The notes under the pieces are model-generated. The model searched no databases. It was not told the DNA's origin and saw nothing but the letters and a program-made list of their open reading frames with translations. From a virus (taxonomy: Duplodnaviria > Heunggongvirae > Uroviricota > Caudoviricetes): 29,734 nucleotides of DNA. The position numbers and the translations under genes were made by a program. Of the stretch, positions 526 to 23,357 are shown piece by piece. The first letter of the stretch is position 1, and every line of letters starts with the position of its first letter. Where the stretch lies: IMG/VR virus record IMGVR_UViG_2850756110_000009, one strand, 5' to 3'.

Positions 526-629
526 GACGAGTCATCCCTTAATTATTCTCACTTAACTGTAAGCGTACAGCCTGAACCGTCTGGTCAGAATCTGACGAAT
601 TAGACAAAGTGGTGTCCACCAAATAAGTA

Positions 630-1031
630 GTGGGAACCAAAGTGTCAGATATGCAGAAAAATGTGAATCCCGGCAGGCGAAAAGGCTGCCCTAATTATCC
701 TCCCGAATTTAAACAGCAGCTCGTTGCTGCCTCCTGTGAACCCGGGATATCCATCTCAAAACTTGCTCTTGAAAATGGCATTAACGCCAATCTGTTGTTC
801 AAATGGCGACAACAATGGCGCGAGGGAAAGCTGCTATTACCTTCTTCAGAGAGCCCCCAGCTACTTCCTGTGACTCTCGATGCAGCTGCCGAACAGCCAG
901 AATCGCTCGCAGAGGATCCGGAAACCCTCAGTATCAGCTGTGAGGTAACGTTCCGGCACGGGACGCTCCGCTTCAATGGCAATGTCAGCGAAAAGCTCCT
1001 GACTCTGCTGATACAGGAACTGAAGCGATGA
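630..1031 (+). CDS. IS66-family accessory protein TnpA (orfA)
   Basis: 133-aa ORF in first position of the three-gene IS66 arrangement; identical protein in all three copies. Confidence 0.8.
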   Translation: MGTKVSDMQKNVNPGRRKGCPNYPPEFKQQLVAASCEPGISISKLALENGINANLLFKWRQQWREGKLLLPSSESPQLLPVTLDAAAEQPESLAEDPETLSISCEVTFRHGTLRFNGNVSEKLLTLLIQELKR

Positions 1032-1375
1032 TCCCGTTACCTTCCGGGACCAAAATTTGGCTGGTTGCCGGTATCACCGATATGAGAAATGGCTTCAACG
1101 GCCTGGCGGCAAAGGTGCAGACGACGCTGAAAGACGATCCGATGTCAGGTCACGTTTTTATCTTCCGTGGGCGTAATGGCAGTCAGGTAAAGCTCCTCTG
1201 GTCTACCGGCGATGGACTGTGTCTGCTGACCAAACGGCTGGAGCGCGGCCGCTTCGCCTGGCCGTCAGCCCGGGATGGCAAAGTGTTCCTCACACCGGCA
1301 CAGCTGGCGATGCTCCTTGAAGGTATCGACTGGCGGCAGCCTAAAAGACTGCTTACGTCCCTGACTATGTTGTAA
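1028..1375 (+). CDS. IS66-family TnpB (orfB)
   Basis: 115-aa ORF MIPLPSGTKIWLVAGITDMRNGFNGLAAKVQ; its start overlaps the orfA stop, as expected for IS66 orfB. Confidence 0.85.
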   Translation: MIPLPSGTKIWLVAGITDMRNGFNGLAAKVQTTLKDDPMSGHVFIFRGRNGSQVKLLWSTGDGLCLLTKRLERGRFAWPSARDGKVFLTPAQLAMLLEGIDWRQPKRLLTSLTML

Positions 1376-1423
1376 GCCTCTTTATCCTGGTCGACGCTGA
1401 ATGAGCCTGGTAATATACCCGGT

Positions 1424-2962
1424 ATGAGCAGCTCACTTCCTGACGATATCAATGCACTGAAACGTCTCCTTGCCGAACAGGAGGCGCTGAACCGTGCCCT
1501 GCTGGAAAAGCTGAACGAGCGTGAACGCGAAATAGACCATCTGCAGGCACAGCTGGATAAGCTGCGCCGGATGAACTTCGGCAGCCGCTCCGAAAAAGTC
1601 TCCCGTCGTATCGCACAGATGGAAGCTGACCTGAAGGCACTTCAGAAAGAAAGTGATACCCTTACCGGTCGGGTTGACGACCCGGCCGTGCAGCGCCCGC
1701 TGCGTCAAACCCGCACCCGCAAACCGTTCCCCGAATCACTCCCCCGCGATGAAAAACGGCTGCTGCCGGCAGCGTCATGCTGCCCGGAATGTGGAGGCTC
1801 ACTGAGCTATCCGGGTGAGGATGCCGCCGAACAGCTGGAGTTGATGCGCAGCGTCTTCCGGGTTATCCGGACTGTACGTGAAAAGCATGCCTGTACTCAG
1901 TGCGATGCCATCGTGCAGGCCCCCGCGCCTTCACGGCCCATCGAGCGGGGTATCGCAGGACCGGGGCTGCTGGCCCGCGTGCTGATCTCAAAGTATGCAG
2001 AGCACACCCCGCTGTACCGCCAGTCTGAAATGTACGGCCGCCAGGGCGTGGAGCTGAGTCGTTCACTGCTGTCGGGCTGGGTGGATGCATGCTGCCGGCT
2101 ACTGTCACCGCTGGAAGAAGCGCTTCAGGACTATGTGCTGACTGACGGTAAGCTCCATGCTGATGACACGCCTGTCCCGGTGCTGTTGCCAGGCAATAAG
2201 AAAACGAAGACCGGGCGGTTATGGACCTACGTTCGTGACGACCGTAACGCCGGGTCAACGCTGGCGCCGGCGGTGTGGTTCGCTTACAGCCCGGACAGAA
2301 AAGGCATCCATCCGCAGACCCATCTTGCGGGGTTCAGTGGTGTACTGCAGGCGGATGCATACGCCGGGTTCAACGAGCTGTACCGGGATGGCCGGATAAC
2401 GGAAGCCGCCTGTTGGGCTCACGCCCGCCGTAAAATCCACGATGTGCACGTTCGCACCCCGTCAGCCCTGACGGAGGAAGCGCTGAAACGGATCGGCGAA
2501 CTGTACGCCATCGAGGCAGAGATAAGGGGAATGACGGCGGAGCAGCGCCTTGCCGAACGTCAGTTGAAAACGAAACCGCTGCTGAAATCCCTGGAAAGCT
2601 GGCTGCGTGAAAAGATGAAAACCCTGTCGCGACACTCAGAACTGGCGAAAGCGTTCGCATACGCCCTGAACCAGTGGCCGGCGCTGACGTACTATGCAGA
2701 TGATGGCTGGGCTGAGGCGGACAATAACATCGCTGAAAATGCGTTGCGGATGGTCAGTCTGGGCCGCAAAAACTACCTGTTCTTCGGTTCGGATCATGGA
2801 GGAGAGCGGGGAGCGCTGCTGTACAGCCTGATCGGGACGTGCAAACTGAACGGAGTGGAGCCAGAAAGCTACCTCCGCTATGTACTTGACGTCATAGCCG
2901 ACTGGCCGATAAACCGGGTCGGCGAACTGCTCCCCTGGCGCGTAGCACTGCCGACTGAATAA
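1424..2962 (+). CDS. IS66-family DDE transposase TnpC (orfC)
   Basis: 512-aa ORF with the CWAHARRK region typical of IS66 transposases; intact in all three copies. Confidence 0.9.
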
Positions 2963-2999
2963 CACATCCCCGTCAATACGGTTCTTGCTGCACGCTTAC

Positions 3000-3007
3000 G
3001 ATTTTGC
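3000..3007. repeat. Half of a split 8-bp target-site duplication GATTTTGC (partner, inverted, at 28473-28480)
   Basis: Octamer beside the right end of IS66 copy 1 equals the reverse complement of the octamer beside the left end of copy 3. Confidence 0.85.
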
Positions 3008-5349: not shown

Positions 5350-6734
5350 TTAAACACTCGCCACGTTATACCAGGTGCCATTAATCAGTTTCTGAAGCGG
5401 GCGGTAATACACGCCGTTGACGTTATCCGCTGAGTCACGGCCGGTATCCGATATCGCTATCCCTGACAGCCCGTGTCCCGAAGGTGCGCGAAATCTCCAC
5501 GAAACGGTGTTACTGCCGGGGCTGTAATACATTTCATGGCCATACCGTACATCCTGTACCCCCTCTGTTCGATATTTATAGCGGGCATCGAAGTTTCCGT
5601 AATTTAACGGAATTACCTGTCCGTTTACGGCGAACGTGATGCTGTTATCTGTATTCCTCTGGCTGAAAAAATGCCAGCCTGAATCATCGCCAAGCTCTGC
5701 AACAACAGACCTGGATGGATTACCCCACAAATAAAATGCTGCATTTTTCGTGGAGTTGTTGGCGCTGGATAACGTGAATTTTCTGGCAGTTCCGGCCTGA
5801 ATATTCTTAAAAGCAATAGCCACTCCATTCTGAAAGCGGAATACACGCTGACTATTAGCATAAACATCCAGAATACCGTCTCCATTCTGTTTAAATCCGG
5901 TGTCATTATCACCAAGAACAATTGAATTCCCCCCAGGGCGTTCTGAACGCCGATACCCAGCGCACCATTGACCTGCGAACCACCGCCAACAGACACTTTA
6001 TGCGACATGGATATTTCACCCGTCCGCAAATTAATGGTGAACGGGCGCAGGGGACCAATATCGCCATTTTCCCCCTGACCTTCACTGGTGGGAATAAGGT
6101 GCAGGCACTCTTCCGAACGACGAAAAATCAGGCCAAAAGCTTCGTTGAAAATCCTCAGCGCATTAACACCACGGATTTTCAGCTCTCCGGTTATTTTATC
6201 GCCTTCCCGATGAACATAGCGTTGATCTGACTGCTCTTTACTGTAAACCTGAAGATTATCCCGTGCCGTCCCTTTATTCTGAAGGTCTGACAGATTGTTC
6301 TTCTGCCGCAGGAATATCCTTTTCGGATCCTCAAGAAGATTTACCCAGCCCGCACTGTCGGAGCCTTCAGGATCGGTCAGGTTATCGTCTGTGGTATTCA
6401 GCCAGACCGCTGTTGTTGCGACTCCGGCGAGAATGGCTCCTTTTGCATATCCACCAATGGCCCCCGCAAAACCGGCATTATACGTGTACAAACCGCCAGC
6501 TTGGGCGAACCGTATTGCTGCGGTAATATCGTACATCAGACCGTTAAAATCCTTGCCGTGTGGCGGTATACCTCCCGCTGAGACCGCTGTCATGGTCACC
6601 GGAGGAAAACCTGAATCATACGCAGCATTACCGCTCTCTCTGGTCTGCTGTGTCGCCTTGTCCGGGATACGGTTTTTATCTCCGGTACTCGCAAAGGGGA
6701 CCGCCAGCTGGCGGGGTTTATCACTGGCCTTCAT
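5350..6734 (-). CDS. Tail-fibre protein (P2 H / Mu S position), apparent frameshift in a C6 run at 5929-5934
   Basis: ORFs 5625-6734 and 5350-5823 are the same gene in two frames. Adding one G to the G6 run (sense strand) joins ...VQNALGG to [43 protein letters not shown]. Confidence 0.65.
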
Positions 6735-7134
6735 TACGGGACTCCTTTAAAACTACTGAAACATAAACACCCGGCGGGGACGGCAGTGCACCCGACGACT
6801 GGATAATCGCCAGTTCTGCCAACGAGAGCGCGGACTCAAAGATGTAACTCATCCTCAGCCCACCATTATTCAGAACATAAGCCCGCCGTTTTTTTCCGAA
6901 CATAAATCTCAGCATCCGGTTAATATCCGGAACGGAACAGTCAGTAATGTTCGACATGGCTTTCATCAGTATCAGCCGCCGGTATACAGCATCAGACAGG
7001 TCAACAGTCCGGGTATCCGATTTTCCGTTGTAAAACGGTGCCTGATTAGACTGGCCCCCTGAATCTCCAGACAACCAGTATCACTTAAATAAGTGATAGT
7101 CTTAATACTAGTTTTTAGACTAGTCATTGGAGTA

Positions 7135-7503
7135 CAGATGATTGATGTCTTAGGGCCGGAGAAACGCAGACGGCGTACCACACAGGAAAAGATCGCAATT
7201 GTTCAGCAGAGCTTTGAACCGGGGATGACGGTCTCCCTAGTTGCCCGGCAACATGGTGTAGCAGCCAGCCAGTTATTTCTCTGGCGTAAGCAATACCAGG
7301 AAGGAAGTCTTACTGCTGTGGCCGCCGGAGAACAGGTTGTTCCTGCCTCTGAACTTGCTGCCGCCATGAAGCAGATTAAAGAACTCCAGCGCCTGCTCGG
7401 CAAGAAAACGATGGAAAATGAACTCCTCAAAGAAGCCGTTGAATATGGACGGGCAAAAAAGTGGATAGCGCACGCGCCCTTATTGCCCGGGGATGGGGAG
7501 TAA
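7135..7503 (+). CDS. IS2 OrfA (InsC-like)
   Basis: Translation [56 protein letters not shown] is the IS2 OrfA sequence; the track ORF starts 14 codons upstream at 7093. Confidence 0.85.
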
Positions 7504-8366
7504 GCTTAGTCAGCCGTTGTCTCCGGATGTCGCGTGCGCAGTTGCACGTCATTCTCAGACGAACCGATGACTGGATGGATGGCCGCCGCAGTCGTCACAC
7601 TGATGATACGGATGTGCTTCTCCGTATACACCATGTTATCGGAGAGCTGCCCACGTATGGTTATCGTCGGGTATGGGCGCTGCTTCGCAGACAGGCAGAA
7701 CTTGATGGTATGCCTGCGATCAATGCCAAACGTGTTTACCGGATCATGCGCCAGAATGCGCTGTTGCTTGAGCGAAAGCCTGCTGTACCGCCATCGAAAC
7801 GGGCACATACAGGCAGAGTGGCCGTGAAAGAAAGCAATCAGCGATGGTGCTCTGACGGGTTCGAGTTCTGCTGTGATAACGGAGAGAGACTGCGTGTCAC
7901 GTTCGCGCTGGACTGCTGTGATCGTGAGGCACTGCACTGGGCGGTGACTACCGGCGGCTTCAACAGTGAAACAGTACAGGACGTCATGCTGGGAGCGGTG
8001 GAACGCCGCTTCGGCAACGATCTTCCGTCGTCTCCAGTGGAGTGGCTGACGGATAATGGTTCATGCTACCGGGCTAATGAAACACGCCAGTTCGCCCGGA
8101 TGTTGGGACTTGAACCGAAGAACACGGCGGTGCGGAGTCCGGAGAGTAACGGAATAGCAGAGAGCTTCGTGAAAACGATAAAGCGTGACTACATCAGTAT
8201 CATGCCCAAACCAGACGGGTTAACGGCAGCAAAGAACCTTGCAGAGGCGTTCGAGCATTATAACGAATGGCATCCGCATAGTGCGCTGGGTTATCGCTCG
8301 CCACGGGAATATCTGCGGCAGCGGGCTTGTAATGGGTTAAGTGATAACAGATGTCTGGAAATATAG
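7461..8366 (+). CDS. IS2 OrfB transposase (InsD-like)
   Basis: 301-aa ORF with the IS3-family DDE region; overlaps orfA in the -1 frame as expected for IS2. Confidence 0.85.
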
Positions 8367-8663
8367 GGGCAAATCCACTGATTAAACGGACAGGGATCAT
8401 CCATTACCGGGGTGTCCATCCTGGACTCGCTGAAGCCCAGGTAATTAAAATCGTCCTTTACCGTCAGCCGGCGACTGACACCCACAATCTTTCCCCAGAC
8501 ATCAAGACCATACTTTTCTGCGGTATCGATGTTCCAGATAAGACCATAAAAATCACTGATAAAACTGTCGGGGGAAAGCGCTGCGTTAAAGCTGTTAATG
8601 AGGGCATTGAGTCGGGGGCTGGCAGCATACTGCGCAAGCACAGTGGCAGCCACATTCTGCACG

Positions 8664-9901
8664 TTATGCCTCCTGGAGTTTCACACTGATATCCGACACA
8701 TCCAGAACCGGAATCTCATCTATCCCGAAAGTGACAGCCGTTGTCCATGACGAACCGTCACGGCTCACAGTAAGGCCCAGAATATCAATATGTTCCGGAT
8801 CGGTTTTGTAAATGCCGGCATAGTAGCGCCCGGCAGAGACAACAGAGGCAACCCTTGCCCGCAGACCACCATCTGTACCATTAAATGCGTCCAGCACGGA
8901 TTGCTGTACCTGTCGGGTAATATCTGAAGGCAGGTAGTCACTTTTTTTCAGCGTCACACTGACATGCAGACTGACGGGTTTGAGTGTCTGCCAGCTGATT
9001 ACGTATTCAGGATACGGCGGATCGTACTCCTTATCTGCAACAGTGAACGTTGTGTTGCCATTCATATCAATACCCGGCGGAGCCTTACGCCAGATGGCCG
9101 CCGCGATATCTGCCGGGCTGCCGCCGTACACGCCAACATAAAGCGAACCGGGTGTTAATGGATACTGACTGACTCCGGCTTTTTGTTCTGTTTTTTTCGG
9201 ATTATGGGTGACGTAAACATCCACCACGTTTTCTACCGTGGAGAGTATTTCACCCCGGATGGCTTCCAGAATATTCCGGGCATTACGGGCAACTGAATTA
9301 CGTCGGCGGTTTTCAAAGTCCGCACGGGTTTCCTCATCGCTGCCCGGCACACCGGCACGGGCGTTAGTGACACCTGACCAGCCAGGTATTGCCTTATAAA
9401 TTTTATTCAGCGTCCCCACAGGACAGCCGACGGGGCCGGTGGACAAATTCAGAAATACCGCATCAACCTGCCCTGATGCGCCGATAGTGACGTCTGACTG
9501 ACATACTTATAACCGGCCTCATCCTGCCCCATACTGCCCGCCGGGATCAGCGTGCCAACCAGCCCGGTACAGGTCGCTGTTACTGTCGTACCTGTGGCCC
9601 CACGGCGCTCCAGGAAATAAATCCTGCCTATTGCATCCTGAAAGCGACCACTGGAAAAGTCAGGGTTGATCTGGTTAACGATATACAGCAACTGATCGTT
9701 TTTATCCGCAATAATGGCGCTTTCGCTGGATGCAAGTTGTCCCTGCGGACTGCTCAGACTGGTACTCATGGCCCCGCCCAGCGCCGCCGAAAAATCAGCA
9801 AGCCTGCCGCTCAGAATATCCGCTTCATCCGGCACATTCAGCCCGCTATCCGAAATCTGTACAGCGGGCACTGCGGTAGAAAAAGATTTATTTTCACTCA
9901 T
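8664..9901 (-). CDS. Baseplate J-like protein (P2 gpJ / Mu gp47 position), apparent frameshift near 9471-9502
   Basis: ORFs 9449-9901 and 8664-9446 are adjacent in different frames. One extra G in the G3 run (+ strand C3 at 9471-9473), or a third GTCA unit at 9495-9502, restores a single ORF of about 410 aa. Confidence 0.6.
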
Positions 9902-10253
9902 AGCAGTACCGTAAAAATGTCATTATTGGTATCTGTAATACGCAGCACACCTGTTACTGTCCGGGTTTGATCAGCTGTGACCTGGCAGACAGCGGCGCTC
10001 ACGGTCGGCAGTTTAAGTGCTTCCTGTTGCAGAGTGGCATTCACCAGTTGTGTGCCGGGCCAGTGTCCGAGGATGCGTGGCCAGTAAGGTATGCCAGCCG
10101 TTGAGTCGTACCAGCACTCCCCAGAAAAGTACTGCACGCACACGCCACATCCTGAGCTACCGCATGGGGATTATCAGTAATGGCAAGATTTCCGGTATCA
10201 TCAAGCAGGATATCCCATGTCCCGGTGTCAAGAAGAAGTGATCGTGACTGCAT
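9898..10253 (-). CDS. Baseplate wedge protein (P2 gpW / Mu gp46-like), apparent frameshift in a C4 run at 10119-10122
   Basis: 70-aa and 81-aa overlapping ORFs; adding one G makes ...VAQDVACACSTFLGECWYDSTAGIPYWPRILG... continuous, giving a product of about 115 aa. Confidence 0.55.
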
Positions 10254-10265
10254 GTTTTCTCCTGT

Positions 10266-10943
10266 TTACCGGGATCCCTGCGTGGTTGAGCCGCCGGACT
10301 CAACGCCGCCGTGAACGTGGTTTCCAAAATCAATACCCCCGATGTTCGAACCGCCGGAAAGCCTGGACTGCCCGGTAACGTCAAGCCCCTTACTGACGGC
10401 GGTATCGCCGTTCAGCGCAATTTGTGGTGAGTTAACGGTGAAGCTTTTCGGCGCATTAATCACCCCCTCAGGCGCGGATATCTCCACTTTCCAGGGAGAT
10501 ACAATCCGTATCTGGTTGTCATCAAATACCACAAACTGGACGGGATCACCGTTGAGCACGCCACCCAGCCAGATGGCATCAGCATAATTATGGGTACGCT
10601 TTGATCCCGGCATCGCAGCCTGACGCGTGGCTTTTACCGCACTGATATCCCGATCGCAGATGGCAAGAAAACCGATATCCCCCACATGTGGCGGGATAAT
10701 CACCGCATTACCGCCCCCCTGTAGTCGCCATACGGGAATGTTATAAATCACCTCATGTTCAACCGGGGAACCGTCTGCTGCAACGCCCATTACCATCGGT
10801 CGGGCCTCAATAAATCCCTCTTCCACGGCTACCACCCGTCCCAGAGTGATAAACGCATGACGTCCGAGAAACTGCCGCAGCATAAAGTCCTGTGCATTGA
10901 TTTCGCTGTTCACGTCTGTCGGGTTACTGAGTGGTTGTGCCAT
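10266..10943 (-). CDS. Baseplate spike/assembly protein (P2 gpV-like)
   Basis: 225-aa ORF directly upstream of the W/J/I-like genes; Gly-rich C-terminus with NHVHGGVESGG resembles gpV-family spike proteins. Confidence 0.55.
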   Translation of the reverse strand: MAQPLSNPTDVNSEINAQDFMLRQFLGRHAFITLGRVVAVEEGFIEARPMVMGVAADGSPVEHEVIYNIPVWRLQGGGNAVIIPPHVGDIGFLAICDRDISAVKATRQAAMPGSKRTHNYADAIWLGGVLNGDPVQFVVFDDNQIRIVSPWKVEISAPEGVINAPKSFTVNSPQIALNGDTAVSKGLDVTGQSRLSGGSNIGGIDFGNHVHGGVESGGSTTQGSR

Positions 10944-11793
10944 TTTCTTCAGCCCTCATCATGGTACAGTTGGAACTCCACGGACCGCCCACGGTTCGCG
11001 AAGTAATGGTGTGTATCACCCCTGTGATCGTATAATCGCCCGTCATATCAGGCAGTGACGATTCCAGATGCGCTGGCCTGCCAGTAAAGAGATCGGGGCA
11101 GAATATCGTGGTGGCGCTGAGTCCGGTCATGGTGTAAACCGGATAGCCAGTCAGTCCGTGATCCGGCGAAATCAGTACCGGCGGAATATTCCGGTTCTGC
11201 CCTTTCGGCCAGATGGTGACTTTCTCCACATTCCCCAGATCAATGTTAATATCGGCGGCTGAAGCGACATCCAGCATTTGTTGTACAACATTACCGGAAA
11301 AATGCGGGTCAGACAGACTGCGGCTGACCCCCTGGTTTTCAAATCCAAGCCCGACAGTTGACGCCAGCGCACGGATAATATCTGCAACCGCAACATCGCC
11401 CTTTGCGCTGAAATCTGCCGCCGGCTGATTACGCAGATTAAAATGAATCTGTCCTGTCAGAATGAGCGGAATATCCGGCGCCTGGTTGTAGTCGGCGTAT
11501 GCATCAGTAATATCACCTTCAAAAATAAGCCGCCCGTCGGCCCACAGCCGCATTTTATTTGCGGTACTCTGCTCCTGTCGCCACACACCGCGCCAGCTTA
11601 AATTCGTCATATGCGCCGGTGACATTCCCCAGATATACAGCGTGATTTGTGTACCAGCCACCCCTCCATATACGGCAATACTGGCAAAACAGCTTGCGTC
11701 GGTAATGGTCAGCATATTGCCCTGGCCATTACCAAACGTTCGTCCGTCTGAAAGAGTGAACTCCACCGTTATTTTACGTTGTCTGTAGCTCAT
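10924..11793 (-). CDS. Hypothetical phage tail/baseplate protein (289 aa)
   Basis: Long ORF in the tail-module operon, translationally coupled to neighbours by overlapping stop/start; function assigned by position only. Confidence 0.4.
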
Positions 11794-12092
11794 ATCAGTT
11801 CCTCAGGTAACAGCCAGTAGAGCCGGTACCGGGATCCGAGCCCCCGCCAGTCAGGGTCACTATTCCCCTCCGTGTCGGTAAAAAACAGATCCCCCTGAAA
11901 CGGCAGGTATCCGTACCGGACAATCCGGTTATTATTCAGACACAGCACGCCATACAGGCACGGTTCACCATTAACAATGATATCGATATACATCCCCGTA
12001 GTACGCTGATTCAGGCGAATGGTGCAGACCTGAGCGCCCAGTGTCACCGTAAACTGCTGGGCTTTAACGGGAGATAAAACAATTTCCAGCAT
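11790..12092 (-). CDS. Hypothetical phage tail protein (100 aa)
   Basis: ORF with ATGA stop/start overlap to the upstream gene, inside the tail module; no family recognised by eye. Confidence 0.35.
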
Positions 12093-12802
12093 CAGGTGAT
12101 CCCCCTGTTCGTGGCGCTTCGTCTGTCAGCGTCTGACGGTTGTGTCTCCGACGCCGTAACTGGCTGCGTTTTAACCGATGCGGCCCCTTTTGCTTTATCG
12201 TTGTCCGTGGGAGACGACTTATCCGTACTTCCCACTGACACCTCTCCTGTATTCATTACGGTCTGAAATACCGCAGTAACCGTCAGTAAGGTCGGACCAT
12301 TATTACTTCGCATTCGGTAGTCATATTTCACAAGGTCGCAGGATGTCCATGTCTTGTCCGGCGTCTCAATATCGTAGAGTCCTGCCGTGGTACGCATCCT
12401 TTCAAGCGTTTCCAGCACATTCGTCCGCGAGGTGGTGGAAAAATTTGTCAGGTTCGGGACGGATCCGGAAAAGGCCGTCCACCCCTCTACAGTGAAAGTC
12501 ACATGCAGTTCCGGCGATCTCTGGATTTTATTAAAGGTGGTATAAGCCCCCTGCTCCACGGGGACGGTGGAAACAGAAGCCTCCGCGCCCACCTCAACGA
12601 CAACAAAAGAATCCGGGGAGAAAGGTTTACCACCCTTCTGATGGGCACCTGCCGGATCATTCCGTGCGTAATAAATACCGAATGACGGTGCCAGTACACT
12701 ATTAATGAGTCCCAGGACACAGCCGCCACGAACTGCACTCAGTACGTTACTTTCACTGAGCGAAAAGTTATTCAGGGAAATATTATCGAAAGAAAAACTC
12801 AT
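12092..12802 (-). CDS. Hypothetical phage tail protein (236 aa) downstream of tape measure
   Basis: ORF starts 4 bp before the tape-measure stop; function assigned by position only. Confidence 0.4.
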
Positions 12803-14819
12803 CCTGTTACCCCGCTGGAATAAACCGACACAAGCGCCGAATTCGTGATACGCCGACGTGCGTCATCGGTAATACCCTTCACATTGTCCGACGTTGTGGT
12901 GACATTCAGTGTCCCGATATGCGTGGTTTCCGTTACGGTGGACTGCGATACAGGCGCAGGATGGAGCGACCGTATGGCCATTGCCGCACCCGGATAAGGC
13001 AGGTTCGCCAGCACCCGCGGAATATAGTTGCGGGTCTCCTCCGGAGCAGCAGCCAGTCCCTTACGCTGAACATTTCCCTCTCCACAGTTATATGCCGCCA
13101 GAGCCTTAGCCAGATCGCCATGAAAAAAACGTATCAGGCCACCAAGTTTTCTCGCGGCGGCATCAGCGGCTTTTTCGGGATCAAAGGCATCGTTCCCCCT
13201 CAGACCAAATTCACTGGCCGTCTTCGGCATGAACTGAAACAGTCCCATCGCACCAGCAGGTGAGACGGCAAACTGATTACCACGGGATTCGGTGATCGCA
13301 ACGCTGCGCAGCAGTCCGGGCGGCAGGTTATATTTTTCCTCCAGTTGAGACAGTTTCGGTTGCAGCCAGCCTAACAGGGCTTCCCCGGTCTTCGTCGGTC
13401 GCTGGCGGTTTTGCATGGCATTACCGAGTTTTTCCTGCGTCGCACGCATACCCTGTAGCCAGGATTCACCGAAGGCTGCTTCCCTCCCGGTTGCCTGAGA
13501 AGCCTGAGTATCCAGCATGCCCTGCTGCCATACTGTGGGTGATTGTGCCCGGGTGATGTTGCCAGGCTTTTCTCCGGCATCCAGTTTTGTCTGATACGTC
13601 TCCATCTCTTTCTTATTGAAAAAGAAAGTCCCGTCTGAAGCCCAGAAAAAACCATGTGAATCCAGCCAGTCCTTATTTTCCCTGCCAACAATGGATGTCA
13701 GTAATCCGTCAACAACCGGGTAAAGCGCCGTTATCGCAAAAAGAAGGCCTCCGGGGCCACTGAGGGCTTTTGTCAGCCCCCGCACCCATGACGCCACTTT
13801 CAGCCCGATCAGCGTAATAATGACATTCTGCCAGCCCCCCAGTTCTCCGGCAGCCTTATTCGCTAGGGAGGCCACTGACTCAACGTCATTCAGAAATGTG
13901 GTGATAAACCTGTTCACTTCCTCCGGATGTTGCTGCATCCAGTCACCGAGTGTCTCCAGCCAGTGGCTGAGCTTCAGCGCGTACGGCATCAACGCGGTGC
14001 TAATCGTCATCCCGATGCCGGACCAGGTCTGATCGAGCTCAACAAGCTCTTTTCGTAGCTTACGGGCCAGCGCTGTACGCCCCGGCGTAACCTGCGAACG
14101 GGAAGTAAATTCGTCCACATCTTTCAGCGCATGACCGGAGCCAAGAAACTGCTGTCCGGCATAACTGAAGCCCAGCGCGTTGCCGTAGGCAGTTTGTTCG
14201 GACTTTGTCAGTCGCGGAAAAATAACCGCCAGCTTGCGCATGATGGCTTCAGTGCTGTCAGTATTTAAATCAACACTAATGCCCGCCCTGGCTGCAACCT
14301 GAAACAAATCCTGTAACACAGGATCAAAGGACCTTCCGGCTCTGAAGGCCGCTTTTGCATTTGCAAGCCGGGAAAATGCCCCAGACATTTCCCCTTCATC
14401 AACATTATTTGCCCGCGCAGCCCGTAACCATCCGTCCAGATTTCTGGCCTTCATGCCAAAAGCATCGGATTCCACGGACAGACGGTTCAGATCACGGGCA
14501 AAACCTGTTACCAGGTTCTTCAGCCCCCCAGCGTCAGACTGACACCCGCAAGAGCCAGAATCTCGCTACGGATTCCTGAAAAAAAACGGGACGCCCGTTT
14601 CCCGGCATCTTCCATTCGACGGGCCGTTTTATCAGCATCTTTTCCGGTTTTTTCCAGTGATTCACTGGTTTTCTTCTGTCCCTGACTGAATGTGTCAGCG
14701 ACACCTTCCATCACCGTCGTGAGCCGGTTAAGGGCAGCATGTACTGCCTGTTCCCCGGCAGTAAAGTCCCTGTCATCAATCCCGAGGGACAGAACAAGCT
14801 CATCAAGTACCTGCGCCAT
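12799..14819 (-). CDS. Tail tape-measure protein with lytic transglycosylase (SLT) domain, apparent frameshift in a C6 run at 14524-14529
   Basis: 99-aa N-terminal ORF (14520-14819) and 558-aa ORF (12799-14475) join in frame if the sense G6 run is G7 (...SLTLGG + LKNLVTGFARDLNRLSVESDAFGMKARN...). SLT-like segment ITESRGNQFAVSPAGAMGLFQFMP...AYNCGEGNV. Lies downstream of the chaperone pair. Confidence 0.65.
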
Positions 14820-15430
14820 TTCTGTTCTCCTGTATCACCTGTTCGTTATGGGCATCCACATGAATTATTTCCAGCAGATCCCATAAGTCCTGCACACCAA
14901 GGACAGAATCCAGTTCAGCTTTTGAAGCCTTACCGGAGGAGATAACGGTCGCAATGGTACGGGGAACATTAACGTAATCCACCACCCCGAACGGTCTGTC
15001 GGGGTCGAGATAACGCGGGGGATATCTAGCTGACGACGGTAGCGAAAAAATCCACATGCAGCTTAAAGACCTCCGCACGCAGATTAAGACGGGTAATGAT
15101 TTCTTCAATATCCTCTTCAACAAGCGGTCTCCGGATGCTGCGTTTTTTCGGATCGGGAACAAACTGCACACAGTCCATCATTTCATCCATCAACGGACGC
15201 GCCTCATCAGGCGGAATTTTCGATAATGCTTTCAGCCCTTCAAGGGCAAGCGCAGCCATCCCCAGACTACGAACATCATCCGGTAACTCCACGCCACCAC
15301 GCCCCATTGCCATAATGGCACGCATCGCCCACCATTCCGCCTGTGAGGCAGACATTTCGGTAAGATGAAATACCTTGCCCTTATCCCGTCCCTGACCTTC
15401 AATAGTGATAAATTTCTCTTTACGGGCCAT
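14803..15430 (-). CDS. Tail assembly chaperone pair (lambda G/GT, P2 E/E' analogue): 134-aa ORF 15026-15430 plus overlapping +1-frame extension to 14803
   Basis: Two overlapping frames immediately upstream of the tape measure. The extension (SLPSSARYPPRYLDPDRPFGVVDYVNVPRTIATVISSGK...) is protein-like. A T6 run (+ strand A6 at 15045-15050) lies in the overlap. Confidence 0.55.
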
Positions 15431-15768
15431 CAGTTAAAAACCTCCGGAGTAATGGTTTCCCACTCAATAACCGCCTGCCCTGGCTGCAACGTACGAGCTG
15501 CATCAGGCAGCGCTTTCCATTGTTTGAGTACGCCATTCACGCAGGTATATTTACGGCCAATCGCCGGAAGCAGGACGACAGCGTTACAACGGAATACAGC
15601 CCGACTGGCCCGGATGTGGTTGACCAGGTATCAAAAATATCCCGGCTGGGGGAATCCGGCATGATATGAAACGTCTGGATAATGTTGCTGTACACAAATC
15701 CCGCGGACAGTTTGGTAATGCTGCCAACTTACTGATTTAGTGTATGATGGTGATTTTAAGGTGCTTGC

Positions 15769-16044
15769 GTGGCTTCCATTTCCATCAGATGTCCTTCCTG
15801 CTCCGCTACTGAAGGCGTGGTGCGTAACGGCAAAAGCACTGCCGGACATCAGCGCTATCTCTGCTCTCATTGCCGTAAAACATGGCAACTACAGTTCACT
15901 TACACCGCCTCTCAGCCCGGTACGCACCAGAAAATCATTGATATGGCCATGAATGGCGTCGGATGTCGCGCCAGTGCACGCATTATGGGCGTTGACCTCA
16001 ACACGGTTTTCCGTCACTTAAAAAACTCAGGCCGCAGTCGGTAA
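15769..16044 (+). CDS. insA: IS1 InsA
   Basis: 91-aa [46 protein letters not shown] matches IS1 InsA. Confidence 0.9.
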
Positions 16045-16070
16045 CCTCGCGCATACAACCGGGCAGTGAT

Positions 16071-16466
16071 GTGATTGTCTGCGCTGAAATGGACGAACAG
16101 TGGGGCTACGTCGGTGCTAAATCACGTCAGCGCTGGCTGTTTTACGCGTATGACAGGATACGGAGGACGGTTGTGGCGCACGTCTTCGGTGAACGCACTC
16201 TGGCCACACTGGAGCGTCTTCTGAGCCTGCTGTCGGCCTTTGAGGTCGTGGTATGGATGACGGATGGCTGGCCGCTGTATGAATCACGCCTGAAGGGAAA
16301 GCTGCACGTTATCAGCAAGCGTTACACTCAGCGCATTGAGCGACATAATCTGAATCTGAGACAACATCTGGCAAGGCTGGGACGGAAGTCACTGTCGTTC
16401 TCAAAATCGGTGGAGCTGCATGACAAGGTCATCGGGCATTATCTGAACATAAAACACTATCAGTAA
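16071..16466 (+). CDS. insB: IS1 InsB reading frame (expressed as InsAB' by frameshift)
   Basis: 131-aa ORF ...[54 protein letters not shown] matches IS1 InsB. Confidence 0.85.
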
Positions 16467-16983
16467 GTTGGAGTCATTACCGACAGTTTACCGTCAATAC
16501 CGCGGGCAGTTTCCGCCAGTACCAGTGGATCGGTGCCATAAACGTTATCTGTTGCAAATCCCTGAAGTCGTACGCCGGAGGGATACAGATTATTCACTGT
16601 CAGCGTGATAATGGCATCCGCCGCAGTGATGGTGTTGTTGTTACCCGACATTTACTGGACCTCCGTGGATGCAATAACAAGTTTCTGGATACTACCGCCG
16701 TCACAGTACCAGAGCGTACAGGACGGACTGCTACGGGTTGCCCGCAAAGAGGGAAGCATATCGCCGATATACAGGTAATAGCCGGTGGCAAACAACGTTG
16801 AAGAAACATCTGCCTCCACAACATTGTTAATCTGTTTCTTCTGCGCCTCCGTCAGTGTCACCCCTTCACGGATCCCTCCCCAGCGTTTGTACTGCTGGAT
16901 AACGTCACTCATTGACGCTGCAACCAGCGCCCGCCCTTCATTGTTGTAGGGGACCGTCTGGTTTGACTTGAATAATGCGATCA

Positions 16984-17262
<279 letters not shown>

Positions 17263-17785
17263 TTACCATCAGTCGCGAAAACAGGTACAACAGAGCTGTA
17301 GTTATTGACAGCAATTATCTGGTAAGCGATGTGTTCAGTACTGCCTTTTACTCTGGCGTTGCCGCTGGTTGTCCATGCCACATAAAAGTAACGCTTGCCC
17401 TGCCCGTTTGCCCATGCAGAAAACGCCAGGTGTTGCTCGTCAGTGACCTCAGATACCGTGGAAAAACCCGCCCATTGCTGGGAAGCGGCCTTAATGGCTG
17501 CCATTGTGTCAGGGACATCAGATACAGGCGCGCCCCGGGATATCACCGCACCGGTGTTACTGGTCATCTTCAGGAGTTCTGCTGCCGATCCACTGCCGAA
17601 CGTTATCGTGGTACTCCCGGGTTTCGCCCCGGCGACAGTAATGACAAAAGCATTCTGTGTGGTATCGAATACCACTGTAGCCACTGCTGCGGTCAGCGCT
17701 GTCTGTAGTGCCGTTGCAGCAGCGGCGAAGCTGGCGACACCGTTAAAATTCACTTCAATGCTGACGCTTTTCCCGTTAATACTCA

Positions 17786-17793
17786 GCATCAGC
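17786..17793. repeat. 8-bp target-site duplication GCATCAGC of IS66 copy 2 (partner at 20235-20242)
   Basis: Identical octamers directly abut both IS ends. Confidence 0.9.
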
Positions 17794-17830
17794 GTAAGCG
17801 TGCAGCAAGAACCGTATTGACGGGGATGTG

Positions 17831-19369
17831 TTATTCAGTCGGCAGTGCTACGCGCCAGGGGAGCAGTTCGCCGACCCGGTTTATCGGCCAGTCGGCTATG
17901 ACGTCAAGTACATAGCGGAGGTAGCTTTCTGGCTCCACTCCGTTCAGTTTGCACGTCCCGATCAGGCTGTACAGCAGCGCTCCCCGCTCTCCTCCATGAT
18001 CCGAACCGAAGAACAGGTAGTTTTTGCGGCCCAGACTGACCATCCGCAACGCATTTTCAGCGATGTTATTGTCCGCCTCAGCCCAGCCATCATCTGCATA
18101 GTACGTCAGCGCCGGCCACTGGTTCAGGGCGTATGCGAACGCTTTCGCCAGTTCTGAGTGTCGCGACAGGGTTTTCATCTTTTCACGCAGCCAGCTTTCC
18201 AGGGATTTCAGCAGCGGTTTCGTTTTCAACTGACGTTCGGCAAGGCGCTGCTCCGCCGTCATTCCCCTTATCTCTGCCTCGATGGCGTACAGTTCGCCGA
18301 TCCGTTTCAGCGCTTCCTCCGTCAGGGCTGACGGGGTGCGAACGTGCACATCGTGGATTTTACGGCGGGCGTGAGCCCAACAGGCGGCTTCCGTTATCCG
18401 GCCATCCCGGTACAGCTCGTTGAACCCGGCGTATGCATCCGCCTGCAGTACACCACTGAACCCCGCAAGATGGGTCTGCGGATGGATGCCTTTTCTGTCC
18501 GGGCTGTAAGCGAACCACACCGCCGGCGCCAGCGTTGACCCGGCGTTACGGTCGTCACGAACGTAGGTCCATAACCGCCCGGTCTTCGTTTTCTTATTGC
18601 CTGGCAACAGCACCGGGACAGGCGTGTCATCAGCATGGAGCTTACCGTCAGTCAGCACATAATCCTGAAGCGCTTCTTCCAGCGGTGACAGTAGCCGGCA
18701 GCATGCATCCACCCAGCCCGACAGCAGTGAACGACTCAGCTCCACGCCCTGGCGGCCGTACATTTCAGACTGACGGTACAGCGGGGTGTGCTCTGCATAC
18801 TTTGAGATCAGCACGCGGGCCAGCAGCCCCGGTCCTGCGATACCCCGCTCGATGGGCCGTGAAGGCGCGGGGGCCTGCACGATGGCATCGCACTGAGTAC
18901 AGGCATGCTTTTCACGTACAGTCCGGATAACCCGGAAGACGCTGCGCATCAACTCCAGCTGTTCGGCGGCATCCTCACCCGGATAGCTCAGTGAGCCTCC
19001 ACATTCCGGGCAGCATGACGCTGCCGGCAGCAGCCGTTTTTCATCGCGGGGGAGTGATTCGGGGAACGGTTTGCGGGTGCGGGTTTGACGCAGCGGGCGC
19101 TGCACGGCCGGGTCGTCAACCCGACCGGTAAGGGTATCACTTTCTTTCTGAAGTGCCTTCAGGTCAGCTTCCATCTGTGCGATACGACGGGAGACTTTTT
19201 CGGAGCGGCTGCCGAAGTTCATCCGGCGCAGCTTATCCAGCTGTGCCTGCAGATGGTCTATTTCGCGTTCACGCTCGTTCAGCTTTTCCAGCAGGGCACG
19301 GTTCAGCGCCTCCTGTTCGGCAAGGAGACGTTTCAGTGCATTGATATCGTCAGGAAGTGAGCTGCTCAT
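17831..19369 (-). CDS. IS66-family transposase TnpC (copy 2)
   Basis: 512-aa protein identical to the copy 1 orfC product. Confidence 0.9.
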
Positions 19370-19417
19370 ACCGGGTATATTACCAGGCTCATTCAGCGTC
19401 GACCAGGATAAAGAGGC

Positions 19418-19765
19418 TTACAACATAGTCAGGGACGTAAGCAGTCTTTTAGGCTGCCGCCAGTCGATACCTTCAAGGAGCATCGCCAGCTGTGCCGGTG
19501 TGAGGAACACTTTGCCATCCCGGGCTGACGGCCAGGCGAAGCGGCCGCGCTCCAGCCGTTTGGTCAGCAGACACAGTCCATCGCCGGTAGACCAGAGGAG
19601 CTTTACCTGACTGCCATTACGCCCACGGAAGATAAAAACGTGACCTGACATCGGATCGTCTTTCAGCGTCGTCTGCACCTTTGCCGCCAGGCCGTTGAAG
19701 CCATTTCTCATATCGGTGATACCGGCAACCAGCCAAATTTTGGTCCCGGAAGGTAACGGGATCAT
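19418..19765 (-). CDS. IS66-family TnpB (copy 2)
   Basis: Identical 115-aa product to copy 1. Confidence 0.85.
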   Translation of the reverse strand: MIPLPSGTKIWLVAGITDMRNGFNGLAAKVQTTLKDDPMSGHVFIFRGRNGSQVKLLWSTGDGLCLLTKRLERGRFAWPSARDGKVFLTPAQLAMLLEGIDWRQPKRLLTSLTML

Positions 19766-20163
19766 CGCTTCAGTTCCTGTATCAGCAGAGTCAGGAGCTT
19801 TTCGCTGACATTGCCATTGAAGCGGAGCGTCCCGTGCCGGAACGTTACCTCACAGCTGATACTGAGGGTTTCCGGATCCTCTGCGAGCGATTCTGGCTGT
19901 TCGGCAGCTGCATCGAGAGTCACAGGAAGTAGCTGGGGGCTCTCTGAAGAAGGTAATAGCAGCTTTCCCTCGCGCCATTGTTGTCGCCATTTGAACAACA
20001 GATTGGCGTTAATGCCATTTTCAAGAGCAAGTTTTGAGATGGATATCCCGGGTTCACAGGAGGCAGCAACGAGCTGCTGTTTAAATTCGGGAGGATAATT
20101 AGGGCAGCCTTTTCGCCTGCCGGGATTCACATTTTTCTGCATATCTGACACTTTGGTTCCCAC
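19762..20163 (-). CDS. IS66-family TnpA (copy 2)
   Basis: Identical 133-aa product to copy 1. Confidence 0.8.
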   Translation of the reverse strand: MGTKVSDMQKNVNPGRRKGCPNYPPEFKQQLVAASCEPGISISKLALENGINANLLFKWRQQWREGKLLLPSSESPQLLPVTLDAAAEQPESLAEDPETLSISCEVTFRHGTLRFNGNVSEKLLTLLIQELKR

Positions 20164-20563
20164 TACTTATTTGGTGGACACCACTTTGTCTAATTCGTCA
20201 GATTCTGACCAGACGGTTCAGGCTGTACGCTTACGCATCAGCGTGCCGGAAAGTTTTTGTAGCTGTTCAACAGTCGCGCCCTTAAACGAACCGCTACGTA
20301 ACCAGGCCGCCGATGGGGCAGGACTGAAACGGGAAAACAACAATTGCCCCGGCGTCCTGGTGGCATTTTTGAAGCCCTGGAAATAAAGCTGAGCGCGTGC
20401 GTACTCATCGGATAATGCACCAAAATACGCGGCCACATCATCCGGAGAGGAAAACGGAACCACAGTGCCGACCGGAAGTAACGGATTACTGGTCAACAGC
20501 AGGCCGTTAAGATCGACGGCATTACCCGCCACAGCCAGCACACCGGGATTTATCTGTACATCT

Positions 20564-21109
20564 TTACTGAGTGGAATTGGCATTATCAGCCTCCGTTGTC
20601 CGGGTGATCACGTTGTCAAAAAACATCAGGGAAGTTGTGACCACAGGGTTAATCTGCATCTGAATATCAAGCGTCCAGCGCGGTTCATACTGTTGCTGAC
20701 CGTTGGGGAATGTGGTGTTAAAGGGCTCTGAGCAATACAGCGGGGAAATCAGCCCACCGCCCTGCCGGAAAAGCCGTACGGAAAATTCAGACCGGAAAAG
20801 CGTTGCCAGCACCTGAGCGTTATCTGCCGCGTGAGGGCCGTAGAAATCAAGCTGGCAACGCCATTTTGTGGTACGGGTGATATGCTGAGAGCCCTCACCA
20901 GCCTGCGCTGGCGCAGAATATGCCACTACCGCAGTGGATAATCCGGTAACATCAATGCCCGTCATGGTGATGAAATTCCCCTGAGGCATCGGGACCTGGT
21001 TCTGCTGCGTTCGTTCAATCCCGGCATCAGAAAAAAGCCCCCGGTGATAATCACCGAGGGCCTGATAAAGAGCGCTTTCCGTAACGGAGAGGGTCACACC
21101 TGAAGGCAT
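20564..21109 (-). CDS. Hypothetical phage structural protein (181 aa), immediately upstream of sheath
   Basis: ORF overlapping the sheath start; typical position of a tail completion/neck protein; assignment by synteny only. Confidence 0.4.
   Translation of the reverse strand: MPSGVTLSVTESALYQALGDYHRGLFSDAGIERTQQNQVPMPQGNFITMTGIDVTGLSTAVVAYSAPAQAGEGSQHITRTTKWRCQLDFYGPHAADNAQVLATLFRSEFSVRLFRQGGGLISPLYCSEPFNTTFPNGQQQYEPRWTLDIQMQINPVVTTSLMFFDNVITRTTEADNANSTQ

Positions 21110-22493: not shown

Positions 22494-23357
<864 letters not shown>

Follow-up and report, generated by a model that had tools for sequence, protein, structure and literature searches.

The 29.7-kb window, i. e. the whole stretch of 29,734 nucleotides analysed here, is 100% identical to the Shigella dysenteriae assembly CP026805.1. 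The proteins that depend on the IS junctions have identical matches in records named as Shigella dysenteriae, and the species was assigned from these names; the lineage is a non-type-1 one. The window very probably represents what is left of a prophage that carries ipaH and has a contractile tail of the E217 type, a view that forms part of the neutral-decay reading developed below. About 11 kb of it is IS-derived. A DNA search of the tail module against a phage collection gave no match, and an exact-protein look-up of the truncated tape-measure ORF returned no record, probably because gene callers took another start codon. The relevant features are the following:

559..2999, plus strand: ISEc22-like copy 1; right flank GATTTTGC at 3000-3007
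6721..7046, minus strand: wedge gene (DUF2612/Phage_Wedge1), C-terminal part; left CTGAT copy at 7042-7046; Pfam DUF2612 E 2e-31
7047..8377, plus strand: IS2 (IS3 family), 1331 bp; 5-bp duplication CTGAT
8378..8662, minus strand: wedge gene, N-terminal part; right CTGAT copy at 8378-8382
8664..9901, minus strand: baseplate J gene; real 4-bp deletion (three CTGA units reduced to two, near 9494), stop at codon 151
15430..15713, minus strand: tail tube gene, C-terminal part; left GACAGTTT copy at 15706-15713; real -1 frameshift at 15612
15714..16481, plus strand: IS1, 768 bp; 8-bp duplication GACAGTTT
16482..16651, minus strand: tail tube gene, N-terminal part; right GACAGTTT copy at 16482-16489
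16652..17793, minus strand: tail sheath gene (DUF3383), C-terminal part; left GCATCAGC copy at 17786-17793
17794..20234, minus strand: ISEc22-like IS66-family element, copy 2, 2441 bp; 8-bp duplication GCATCAGC
20235..20583, minus strand: tail sheath gene, N-terminal part; right GCATCAGC copy at 20235-20242
22839..23357, plus strand: partial IS911 (3' half), where the head module is missing
24319..25570 (right end approximate), minus strand: full-length IS911-like element in the orientation opposite to that of the partial copy
26032..28472, minus strand: ISEc22-like copy 3; right flank GCAAAATC at 28473-28480

The original prediction held that three IS types with intact target duplications interrupt the wedge, tube and sheath genes, and the element ends, the duplications and the empty sites in orthologues bear this out: (i) The wedge gene is split by an element with the ends TAGACTGGCCCC and GGGGCAAATCCA and with CTGAT on both sides. 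It shows all the features that define IS2, i. e. a length of about 1.33 kb, imperfect terminal inverted repeats, two overlapping transposase frames (7093-7503 and 7461-8366) and a 5-bp duplication; moreover, it matches the NCBIfam model 'IS2 transposase TnpB' with 726 bits (cut-off 597) and is 99.8% identical to an IS2 copy in strain VL40. Removal of IS2 and one CTGAT yields a complete ORF of 201 amino acids, and the C-terminal part aligns with positions 12525-12850 of the IS-free orthologous locus of E. coli CFSAN029787. The gene had been called gpI-like, a label that fits its position next to baseplate J but not its family: a Pfam scan gives DUF2612/Phage_Wedge1 only, so that membership in the P2 gpI family was rejected. 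The gene matches solved baseplate wedge proteins, and a PDB sequence search led to 'baseplate wedge protein gp17' (7KH1); it thus belongs to another family of baseplate wedge proteins. (ii) The tube gene is interrupted by IS1, an element defined by a length of 768 bp, terminal inverted repeats of about 23 bp, insA/insB and an 8-9-bp target duplication. It was assigned by its 768 bp, the inverted repeats at 15714-15736 and 16459-16481 and GACAGTTT on both sides; the NCBIfam IS1 transposase match reaches 136 bits (cut-off 100). The intact orthologue of the gene matches Pfam E217_Gp32 (E 2e-17, 64 bits, cut-off 27), and gp32 of phage E217 is the tail tube protein (PMC10329688). This match and the location directly downstream of the sheath gene identify it as a tail tube gene of the E217 gp32 type; a sequence search of the protein against solved chains found no match. 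The N-terminal part is called as a 63-amino acid, E217_Gp32-matching fragment in other assemblies. (iii) The sheath gene contains copy 2 of the ISEc22-like element, which is 99.8% identical to elements annotated as ISEc22. Elements of this type are recognised by a length of about 2.4-2.7 kb, tnpA/tnpB/tnpC, terminal repeats starting with GTAAGCG and an 8-bp target duplication; the 2441 bp of the copy, its three ORFs (133, 115 and 512 amino acids; IS66 transposase match of 465 bits) and its 8-bp duplication place it in the IS66 family. Without the element and one GCATCAGC copy, the gene is a complete ORF of 494 amino acids in the error-free NCTC assembly of the same clone. The protein matches Pfam DUF3383 over residues 6-491 (E 2e-140) and PHROG 'tail sheath' (E 2e-115), and its nearest sequenced phage counterpart is the annotated sheath of Pantoea phage PA-1 (52% identical). 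This full-length match and its place in the tail operon, immediately upstream of the tube gene, define it as a contractile tail sheath gene (DUF3383 / E217 gp31 type).

It had also been claimed that all three genes were intact when hit. This holds for the wedge and the sheath genes; the tube gene carries a real -1 frameshift, GGG to GG at position 15612, that introduces a stop at codon 113 once the IS is removed, and its intactness at the time of the IS1 insertion is not established. All S. dysenteriae loci in which the site is covered (about 20), short-read assemblies included, have the frameshift. The baseplate J gene has a real lesion as well: the loss of one CTGA unit from a tandem repeat is not a homopolymer change, and is thus the kind of inactivating mutation that, according to the original prediction, would speak for decay preceding the insertions; by its own measure, the prediction is in part contradicted. 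The deletion is found in all S. dysenteriae loci and also in the S. boydii ATCC 9905-type remnant.

Two further ISEc22-like copies record a fourth insertion and a rearrangement. The flank of copy 1, GATTTTGC, represents one of the two duplication copies within a tail-fibre gene (DUF4376); the flank of copy 3, GCAAAATC, is its reverse complement and adjoins ipaH. The duplication has been split by an ISEc22-mediated inversion that displaced ipaH relative to the tail genes in this strain. One strain (L031) keeps the un-inverted arrangement, and the site is empty in the S. boydii loci. The head module was lost by an IS911-associated deletion: Between the two IS911 copies, there are a holin gene and four tRNA genes, and every S. 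dysenteriae locus covering this site has the same gene order. The holin region alone remains of the lysis cassette. Since four tail genes are broken and only the holin gene is left for lysis, no particle can be made.

A survey of related strains had been proposed to order the insertions. In the IS-free E. coli CFSAN029787 locus each target occurs once, at the matching position, and 35-mers that span the empty sites occur in those copies of the enteroinvasive E. coli (EIEC) type that retain the sites, but in none of the S. dysenteriae copies. The three IS junctions are common to all of the 20+ S. dysenteriae loci examined, and S. boydii Sb227-type loci have an identical IS2-wedge junction. IS1, the tube frameshift, the sheath ISEc22 and the head deletion are fixed throughout the S. 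dysenteriae genomes analysed. In contrast to these shared lesions, a second IS2-sized insertion at the wedge gene and IS1 copies at two positions of the tail-fibre assembly gene are limited to subsets of S. dysenteriae strains. The sheath ISEc22 probably arrived after the split from S. boydii; the S. boydii copies cannot order IS1 and ISEc22 relative to the other lesions since they have lost the sheath and tube regions. Related copies occupy several positions on Shigella and EIEC chromosomes. The assumption that the tail genes were hit after the head genes had been lost was not confirmed: in EIEC relatives, IS elements entered tail genes at a stage when the head modules were not yet interrupted.

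Taken together, we consider it highly probable that the locus reflects the neutral, cumulative and stepwise decay of a dead, ipaH-carrying prophage in an IS-rich genome. This was the first of the two options originally considered, and it is supported by the conservation of the junctions, the lesions other than the three IS elements, the nested ages of the lesions and the scattered IS hits in relatives. A very large IS population together with ordinary small deletions would have dismantled the prophage piece by piece, each IS transposing once into a tail gene and leaving its usual duplication (5 bp in the case of IS2, 8 bp for both IS1 and the IS66 family). The lesions would have built up over a long time: after the old shared ones, IS hits specific to the lineage would have come next, succeeded by deletion and inversion mediated by IS elements and finally by strain-specific insertions. 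They would be kept because the phage no longer makes virions, so that nothing selects against them, and we infer that they are selectively neutral. The S. dysenteriae branch, polarised with outgroup copies, has 15 non-synonymous and 10 synonymous substitutions, numbers too small to demonstrate a complete relaxation of constraint. The median number of IS copies on Shigella chromosomes is about 200-290, and selection acts against insertions into functional coding sequences (PMC7373316). With about 12 kb of DNA once the IS elements are removed, three insertions are not clearly an excess over chance in this lineage. The surroundings of ipaH copies often contain prophages and pseudogenes (PMC9046306).

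The second option was that the contractile tails of a headless prophage, being tailocin-like or costly, harm the cell, so that selection favoured inactivated sheath, tube and baseplate genes. We regard this as improbable, as it has no specific support. In its favour, the sheath gene, about 11% of the tail region, received seven of the approximately 22 mapped IS events and was hit in three independent lineages (ISEc22 in S. dysenteriae, IS600 in VL40, and IS600 and IS421 in O121/VL7S7, with IS1 also in O121 and IS2 and IS1 in one VL7S7 copy), and the EIEC head modules carry one IS only. However, five of the seven sheath events cluster in one EIEC lineage, so that the events are not independent and the excess is nominal; counted by lineage, the sheath was hit in three of about ten, with a chance of about 0.09. 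Among the relatives, hardly any tail gene has escaped (the mapped events lie in the fibre, fibre-assembly, wedge, hub, tape-measure, chaperone, tube and sheath genes, with one in the head module). Timing argues in the same direction: the IS2 in the wedge gene and the baseplate J frameshift are old baseplate lesions shared with S. boydii copies, and the later sheath ISEc22, possibly also the tube IS1, would have struck a module that was already unable to build a baseplate. Insertions are still arriving in the fibre and fibre-assembly genes of the defunct module. Finally, the knock-out of a tail gene does not stop lysis of an induced cell, which makes a benefit to the cell doubtful. A narrower form of the idea, that the sheath is a true recurrent target, silenced by different IS elements in each Shigella/EIEC lineage as tail expression without virion completion is harmful, seems if anything slightly less probable; if true, it would mean convergent, selected silencing of the contractile-tail module.

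Compared to neutral decay, it is also unlikely, a little more so than the two preceding ideas, that small mutations had killed the genes before any IS arrived. At first sight, the window invites this conclusion: Over 12 kb, it differs from the IS-free orthologue by eight one-base deletions (two in the sheath and one in the tube gene) and one 4-bp deletion. But six of the eight one-base deletions are confined to some PacBio-era CP0268xx assemblies and are absent from the NCTC assembly and from short-read contigs, and the housekeeping gene zitB is broken by such a deletion too, in this assembly only. The NCTC assembly has no other substitution relative to the window over 22.8 kb. The sheath deletions at 16987 and 17242 are such assembly errors, and in error-free assemblies the C-terminal fragment is continuous (379 amino acids). 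In all, nine homopolymer deletions of the window, counted besides the real lesions of the tube and baseplate J genes, are missing from another assembly of the same clone and from short-read contigs, and are thus errors of this assembly; the distrust of homopolymer frameshifts voiced at the outset was well founded. We rejected the argument that the one-base deletions are real because the IS copies lack them: the chance of finding none in the IS sequence is about 0.05, and long G/C runs are scarcer in the IS elements. It was the comparison across assemblies that decided which deletions are real. As judged from this comparison, the tube frameshift and the 4-bp deletion in baseplate J are the only real small lesions, and both spare the sheath and wedge genes. 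The lesson for method is that most frameshifts seen in the window are homopolymer errors of long-read-only data: pseudogene counts from this record would be inflated, and the extra frameshifts are open to misreading as point-mutation decay that preceded the IS hits. That the assembler misplaced IS copies while resolving repeats is extremely improbable: the homopolymer errors, as is typical when long reads alone are assembled, and the presence of three almost identical ISEc22 copies might raise the suspicion, but the six junction 30-mers recur in many independent assemblies, short-read contigs end close to the boundaries of IS1 and IS2 (e. g. a 7394-bp Logan contig covering 8350-15740 of the window), and the target duplications are perfect with matching empty sites in orthologues.

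The decay of this prophage can be compared with several known systems. Like R-type tailocins, it is a chromosomal contractile tail cluster without head genes; unlike them, it owes this state to an IS911-associated deletion rather than to a domesticated architecture. A functional R-type tailocin has intact sheath, tube, baseplate and lysis genes and no head genes, and this assignment was rejected as sheath, tube, wedge and baseplate J are disrupted and most of the lysis cassette is gone. With Pseudomonas phage E217 (PMC10329688), it shares, in the same order, Pfam families that were built on this phage and its relatives (gp31 sheath/DUF3383, gp32 tube, gp41 hub, gp27, gp28 and the tail terminator), although the sequences are only distantly related and the copy in the window is non-functional. 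As in cryptic ('grounded') prophages with useful cargo (PMC6379469; PMC9046306), a T3SS effector gene, ipaH, ends the decaying prophage; here, ipaH has been moved by the ISEc22-mediated inversion. The closest parallel is the IS-driven pseudogenisation and genome reduction in Shigella (Hawkey et al. 2020, PMC7373316; Seferbekova et al. 2021, PMC8072062): In both cases, expanded IS families (IS1, IS2, IS911 and the IS66 family here, IS600 and others in the relatives) disrupt dispensable genes with target duplications left behind, an IS and a second inactivating mutation occur together in some genes, IS elements mediate inversions and deletions, and the insertions are in part fixed in a lineage and in part strain-specific. 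Nothing substantial distinguishes the two, except that we describe one locus, and a prophage rather than a metabolic gene. Thus, the IS-driven prophage decay seen here is already known biology and of little wider import, and the locus provides a clean worked example of the dismantling of a Shigella prophage that delivered an ipaH effector gene.

The window matches GCA_002949415.1/CP026805.1 with 100% identity over 20.7 kb, and identical junction-specific protein fragments carry the name Shigella dysenteriae at their sources. About 11 kb of the 29.7-kb window is IS-derived, including three near-identical 2441-bp copies, revealed by repeat finding, of an IS66-family element that is 99.8% identical to elements annotated as ISEc22. 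The landmarks, from left to right, are:

Left end: zitB (family scan)
559-2999, plus strand: ISEc22-like IS66-family element, copy 1, 2441 bp (repeat finding, family scan)
7047-8377: IS2 (family scan)
15714-16481: IS1 with terminal inverted repeats (repeat finding, family scan)
17794-20234, minus strand: ISEc22-like IS66-family element, copy 2, 2441 bp (repeat finding, family scan)
22835-23357 and 24319-24840: inverted 523-nt repeat pair, IS911-like, IS3 family (repeat finding, family scans)
23875-24185: tRNA genes for Gly, Thr, Arg and Met
25475-25918: integrase-like ORF, 147 aa
25905-26031: IS1 end fragment, 127 nt, cut by ISEc22 copy 3
26032-28472, minus strand: ISEc22-like IS66-family element, copy 3, 2441 bp (repeat finding, family scan)
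Right end: ipaH (family scan)

The space between the IS elements is filled by a contractile-tail module, all of it on the minus strand, which comprises tail fibres, a fibre-assembly protein, the DUF2612 baseplate wedge protein, baseplate J, sheath initiator, spike, hub, plug, a Dit-like protein, a tape-measure protein with a lytic transglycosylase domain, a chaperone-like gene, tube, sheath and tail terminator. The tail genes fall into Pfam families derived from Pseudomonas phage E217, whose sheath is gp31 and whose tube is gp32 (PMC10329688). The segment 22839-26031 stands in place of the head module and of most of the lysis cassette; it is made up of a partial IS911, the holin gene with the four tRNA genes, a full inverted IS911, the integrase-like ORF and the IS1 fragment.

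Three different IS types had been proposed to interrupt tail genes with intact target duplications, and all three junctions could be read directly: GTGC CTGAT / TAGACTGG...IS2...CAAATCCA / CTGAT TAAACGG in the wedge gene, CGCG GACAGTTT / GGTAATGC...IS1...GTCATTACC / GACAGTTT ACCG in the tube gene, and ACTCA GCATCAGC / GTAAGCG...ISEc22...CGCTTAC / GCATCAGC GTGCC in the sheath gene. The orthologous prophage of enteroinvasive E. coli (EIEC) CFSAN029787, which is 99.6% identical and free of IS elements, has a single copy of each target at the corresponding position. Therefore, the three insertions with their duplications are real. The span to which they had been assigned, 6721-20583, runs exactly from the stop codon of the wedge gene (6721) to the start codon of the sheath gene (20583).

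Compared to the IS-free orthologue, the window lacks a single base in eight G/C runs and 4 bp at one further place. As read, these deletions break the frame of the sheath at two points, and also those of baseplate J, the sheath initiator, the tape measure, the tube and a neck-region gene. Comparison of these sites one by one over about 30 assemblies yielded two classes. Six of the eight one-base deletions turn up in CP0268xx assemblies only, and in a patchy subset of these; the NCTC assembly (GCA_900618175.1) of the same clone lacks them, as do a short-read Logan contig, an older draft and a more recent complete genome. Aligned over 22.8 kb, the window and the NCTC assembly show no substitution, but nine single bases are missing from the window (40, 5929, 10119, 14524, 15017, 16987, 17242, 21728 and 22726), all in G/C runs, and one of these losses breaks the housekeeping gene zitB. 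The nine are consensus errors of CP026805.1 and inflate the apparent pseudogene count of that assembly. By contrast, two lesions are present in every assembly and are thus real: baseplate J has lost 4 bp (CTGA x3 to x2), and the tube gene carries a -1 frameshift at window 15612 (GGG to GG). At window 22045, the whole lineage has C5 where the EIEC copies have C4; this +1 difference lies towards the 3' end of the DUF4054 gene, where the gene overlaps the start of the next one, alters no more than the final few codons (151 aa versus 152 aa) and is probably tolerated.

When each IS and one copy of its duplication were excised, the wedge gene became a complete 201-aa ORF that agrees with its EIEC counterpart at 199 of 201 residues, and the sheath gene, reconstructed from the NCTC sequence, a complete 494-aa ORF (491/494 identical). 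In the tube gene, the frame is lost after residue 88 with a stop at codon 113, and baseplate J has a stop at codon 151 without any IS. Thus, the original statement that all three genes were intact when hit is supported for the wedge and the sheath but not established for the tube. Inactivating lesions other than insertions are present in the tube gene and baseplate J, and none is found in the wedge and sheath ORFs; the baseplate J deletion is no homopolymer change and so agrees in part with the refuting observation named beforehand, inactivating mutations unrelated to homopolymers.

A survey of related strains allows some of these events to be ordered. The three IS junctions are common to all S. 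dysenteriae loci examined, and the order partial IS911, holin, IS911 is the same in every such locus that extends over the head boundary. The identical IS2-wedge junction recurs in S. boydii Sb227 (CP000036) and in two related genomes, with flanks 99.65-99.70% identical to the window, and in the ATCC 9905-type S. boydii genomes the remnant, 0.5% diverged, also carries the baseplate J deletion. Both baseplate lesions thus probably predate the split between the S. boydii and S. dysenteriae lineages concerned; the baseplate J deletion may also have arisen by independent slippage at the CTGA repeat. The S. boydii remnants are differently truncated (Sb227-type loci L038, L039 and L042; ATCC 9905-type loci L017-L022). 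The IS1 and the frameshift in the tube gene, the ISEc22 in the sheath gene and the head deletion are all fixed in S. dysenteriae, and the corresponding regions are lost from the S. boydii copies. In subsets of S. dysenteriae strains, the wedge site has taken a further insertion the size of IS2, or IS1 copies are present at two different sites of the fibre-assembly gene.

A fourth insertion, of ISEc22 into the DUF4376 tail-fibre gene adjoining ipaH, is specific for S. dysenteriae, the site being empty in S. boydii. CP026842.1 has kept the un-inverted state, with one ISEc22 lying between the two copies of the 8-bp duplication. In the window, the halves GATTTTGC (3000-3007) and GCAAAATC (28473-28480) adjoin the inverted copies 1 and 3. 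A duplication split in this way is the mark of recombination between inverted ISEc22 copies, and the resulting inversion parted the tail genes from ipaH. In other strains, copy 3 is joined to yet different partners.

The tail module is present in only nine of 5426 complete E. coli genomes, all of human origin, and the inspected copies adjoin ipaH genes, which marks their hosts as EIEC-type strains. Among these and further copies added from NCBI genomes, the module is free of IS elements in three EIEC copies. Elsewhere, the chaperone-like gene is interrupted by ISCro1, the tape measure by an IS66-family element, and a fibre gene and the hub by IS110-family elements. VL40 has IS2 in a fibre gene and IS600 in the sheath. 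In O121 and VL7S7, the sheath has been hit by IS600 and IS421, to which O121 adds IS1 with an IS66-family element nested in it and one VL7S7 copy adds IS2 and IS1. Assorted IS-bounded deletions also occur. IS600 is present in one head module, and some copies with uninterrupted head modules already have IS hits in tail genes; prior loss of the head genes is thus not required. The sheath gene, 11% of the tail region, accounts for seven of the roughly 22 IS events mapped. Since five of the seven belong to one lineage, this may be clustering rather than a true hotspot, and counted per lineage the excess is not significant. The EIEC sheath hits are IS600 at two different sites, IS421, IS1 and IS2 (L006 9065-16645; L002 22011-24762; L043 13565-15356; L044 16427-19483). 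Salmonella enterica genomes very often carry intact module members (494-aa sheath, 236-aa Dit-like protein), so the phage family is widespread and apparently alive there.

Taken together, the data fit a neutral, cumulative decay of a prophage remnant with ipaH as its sole retained asset, one of the two options originally considered. Agreeing with this are the nested ages of the lesions, the older shared with S. boydii and the younger strain-specific, the mixture of IS and non-IS lesions, the new insertions that the module keeps taking although already defunct, and the scatter of the hits in relatives over it. The other option, selection against a costly or lethal tail particle, is not needed and is disfavoured, since two lesions had already broken the baseplate in the ancestor shared with S. 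boydii and since, going by general phage biology, tail-gene knock-outs do not save an induced cell from lysis.

In Shigella, the median number of IS copies per chromosome is roughly 200-290, and selection acts against those that land in functional coding sequences (PMC7373316), so that IS elements pile up in dispensable DNA. Copies of ipaH are known to sit among prophages and pseudogenes (PMC9046306).
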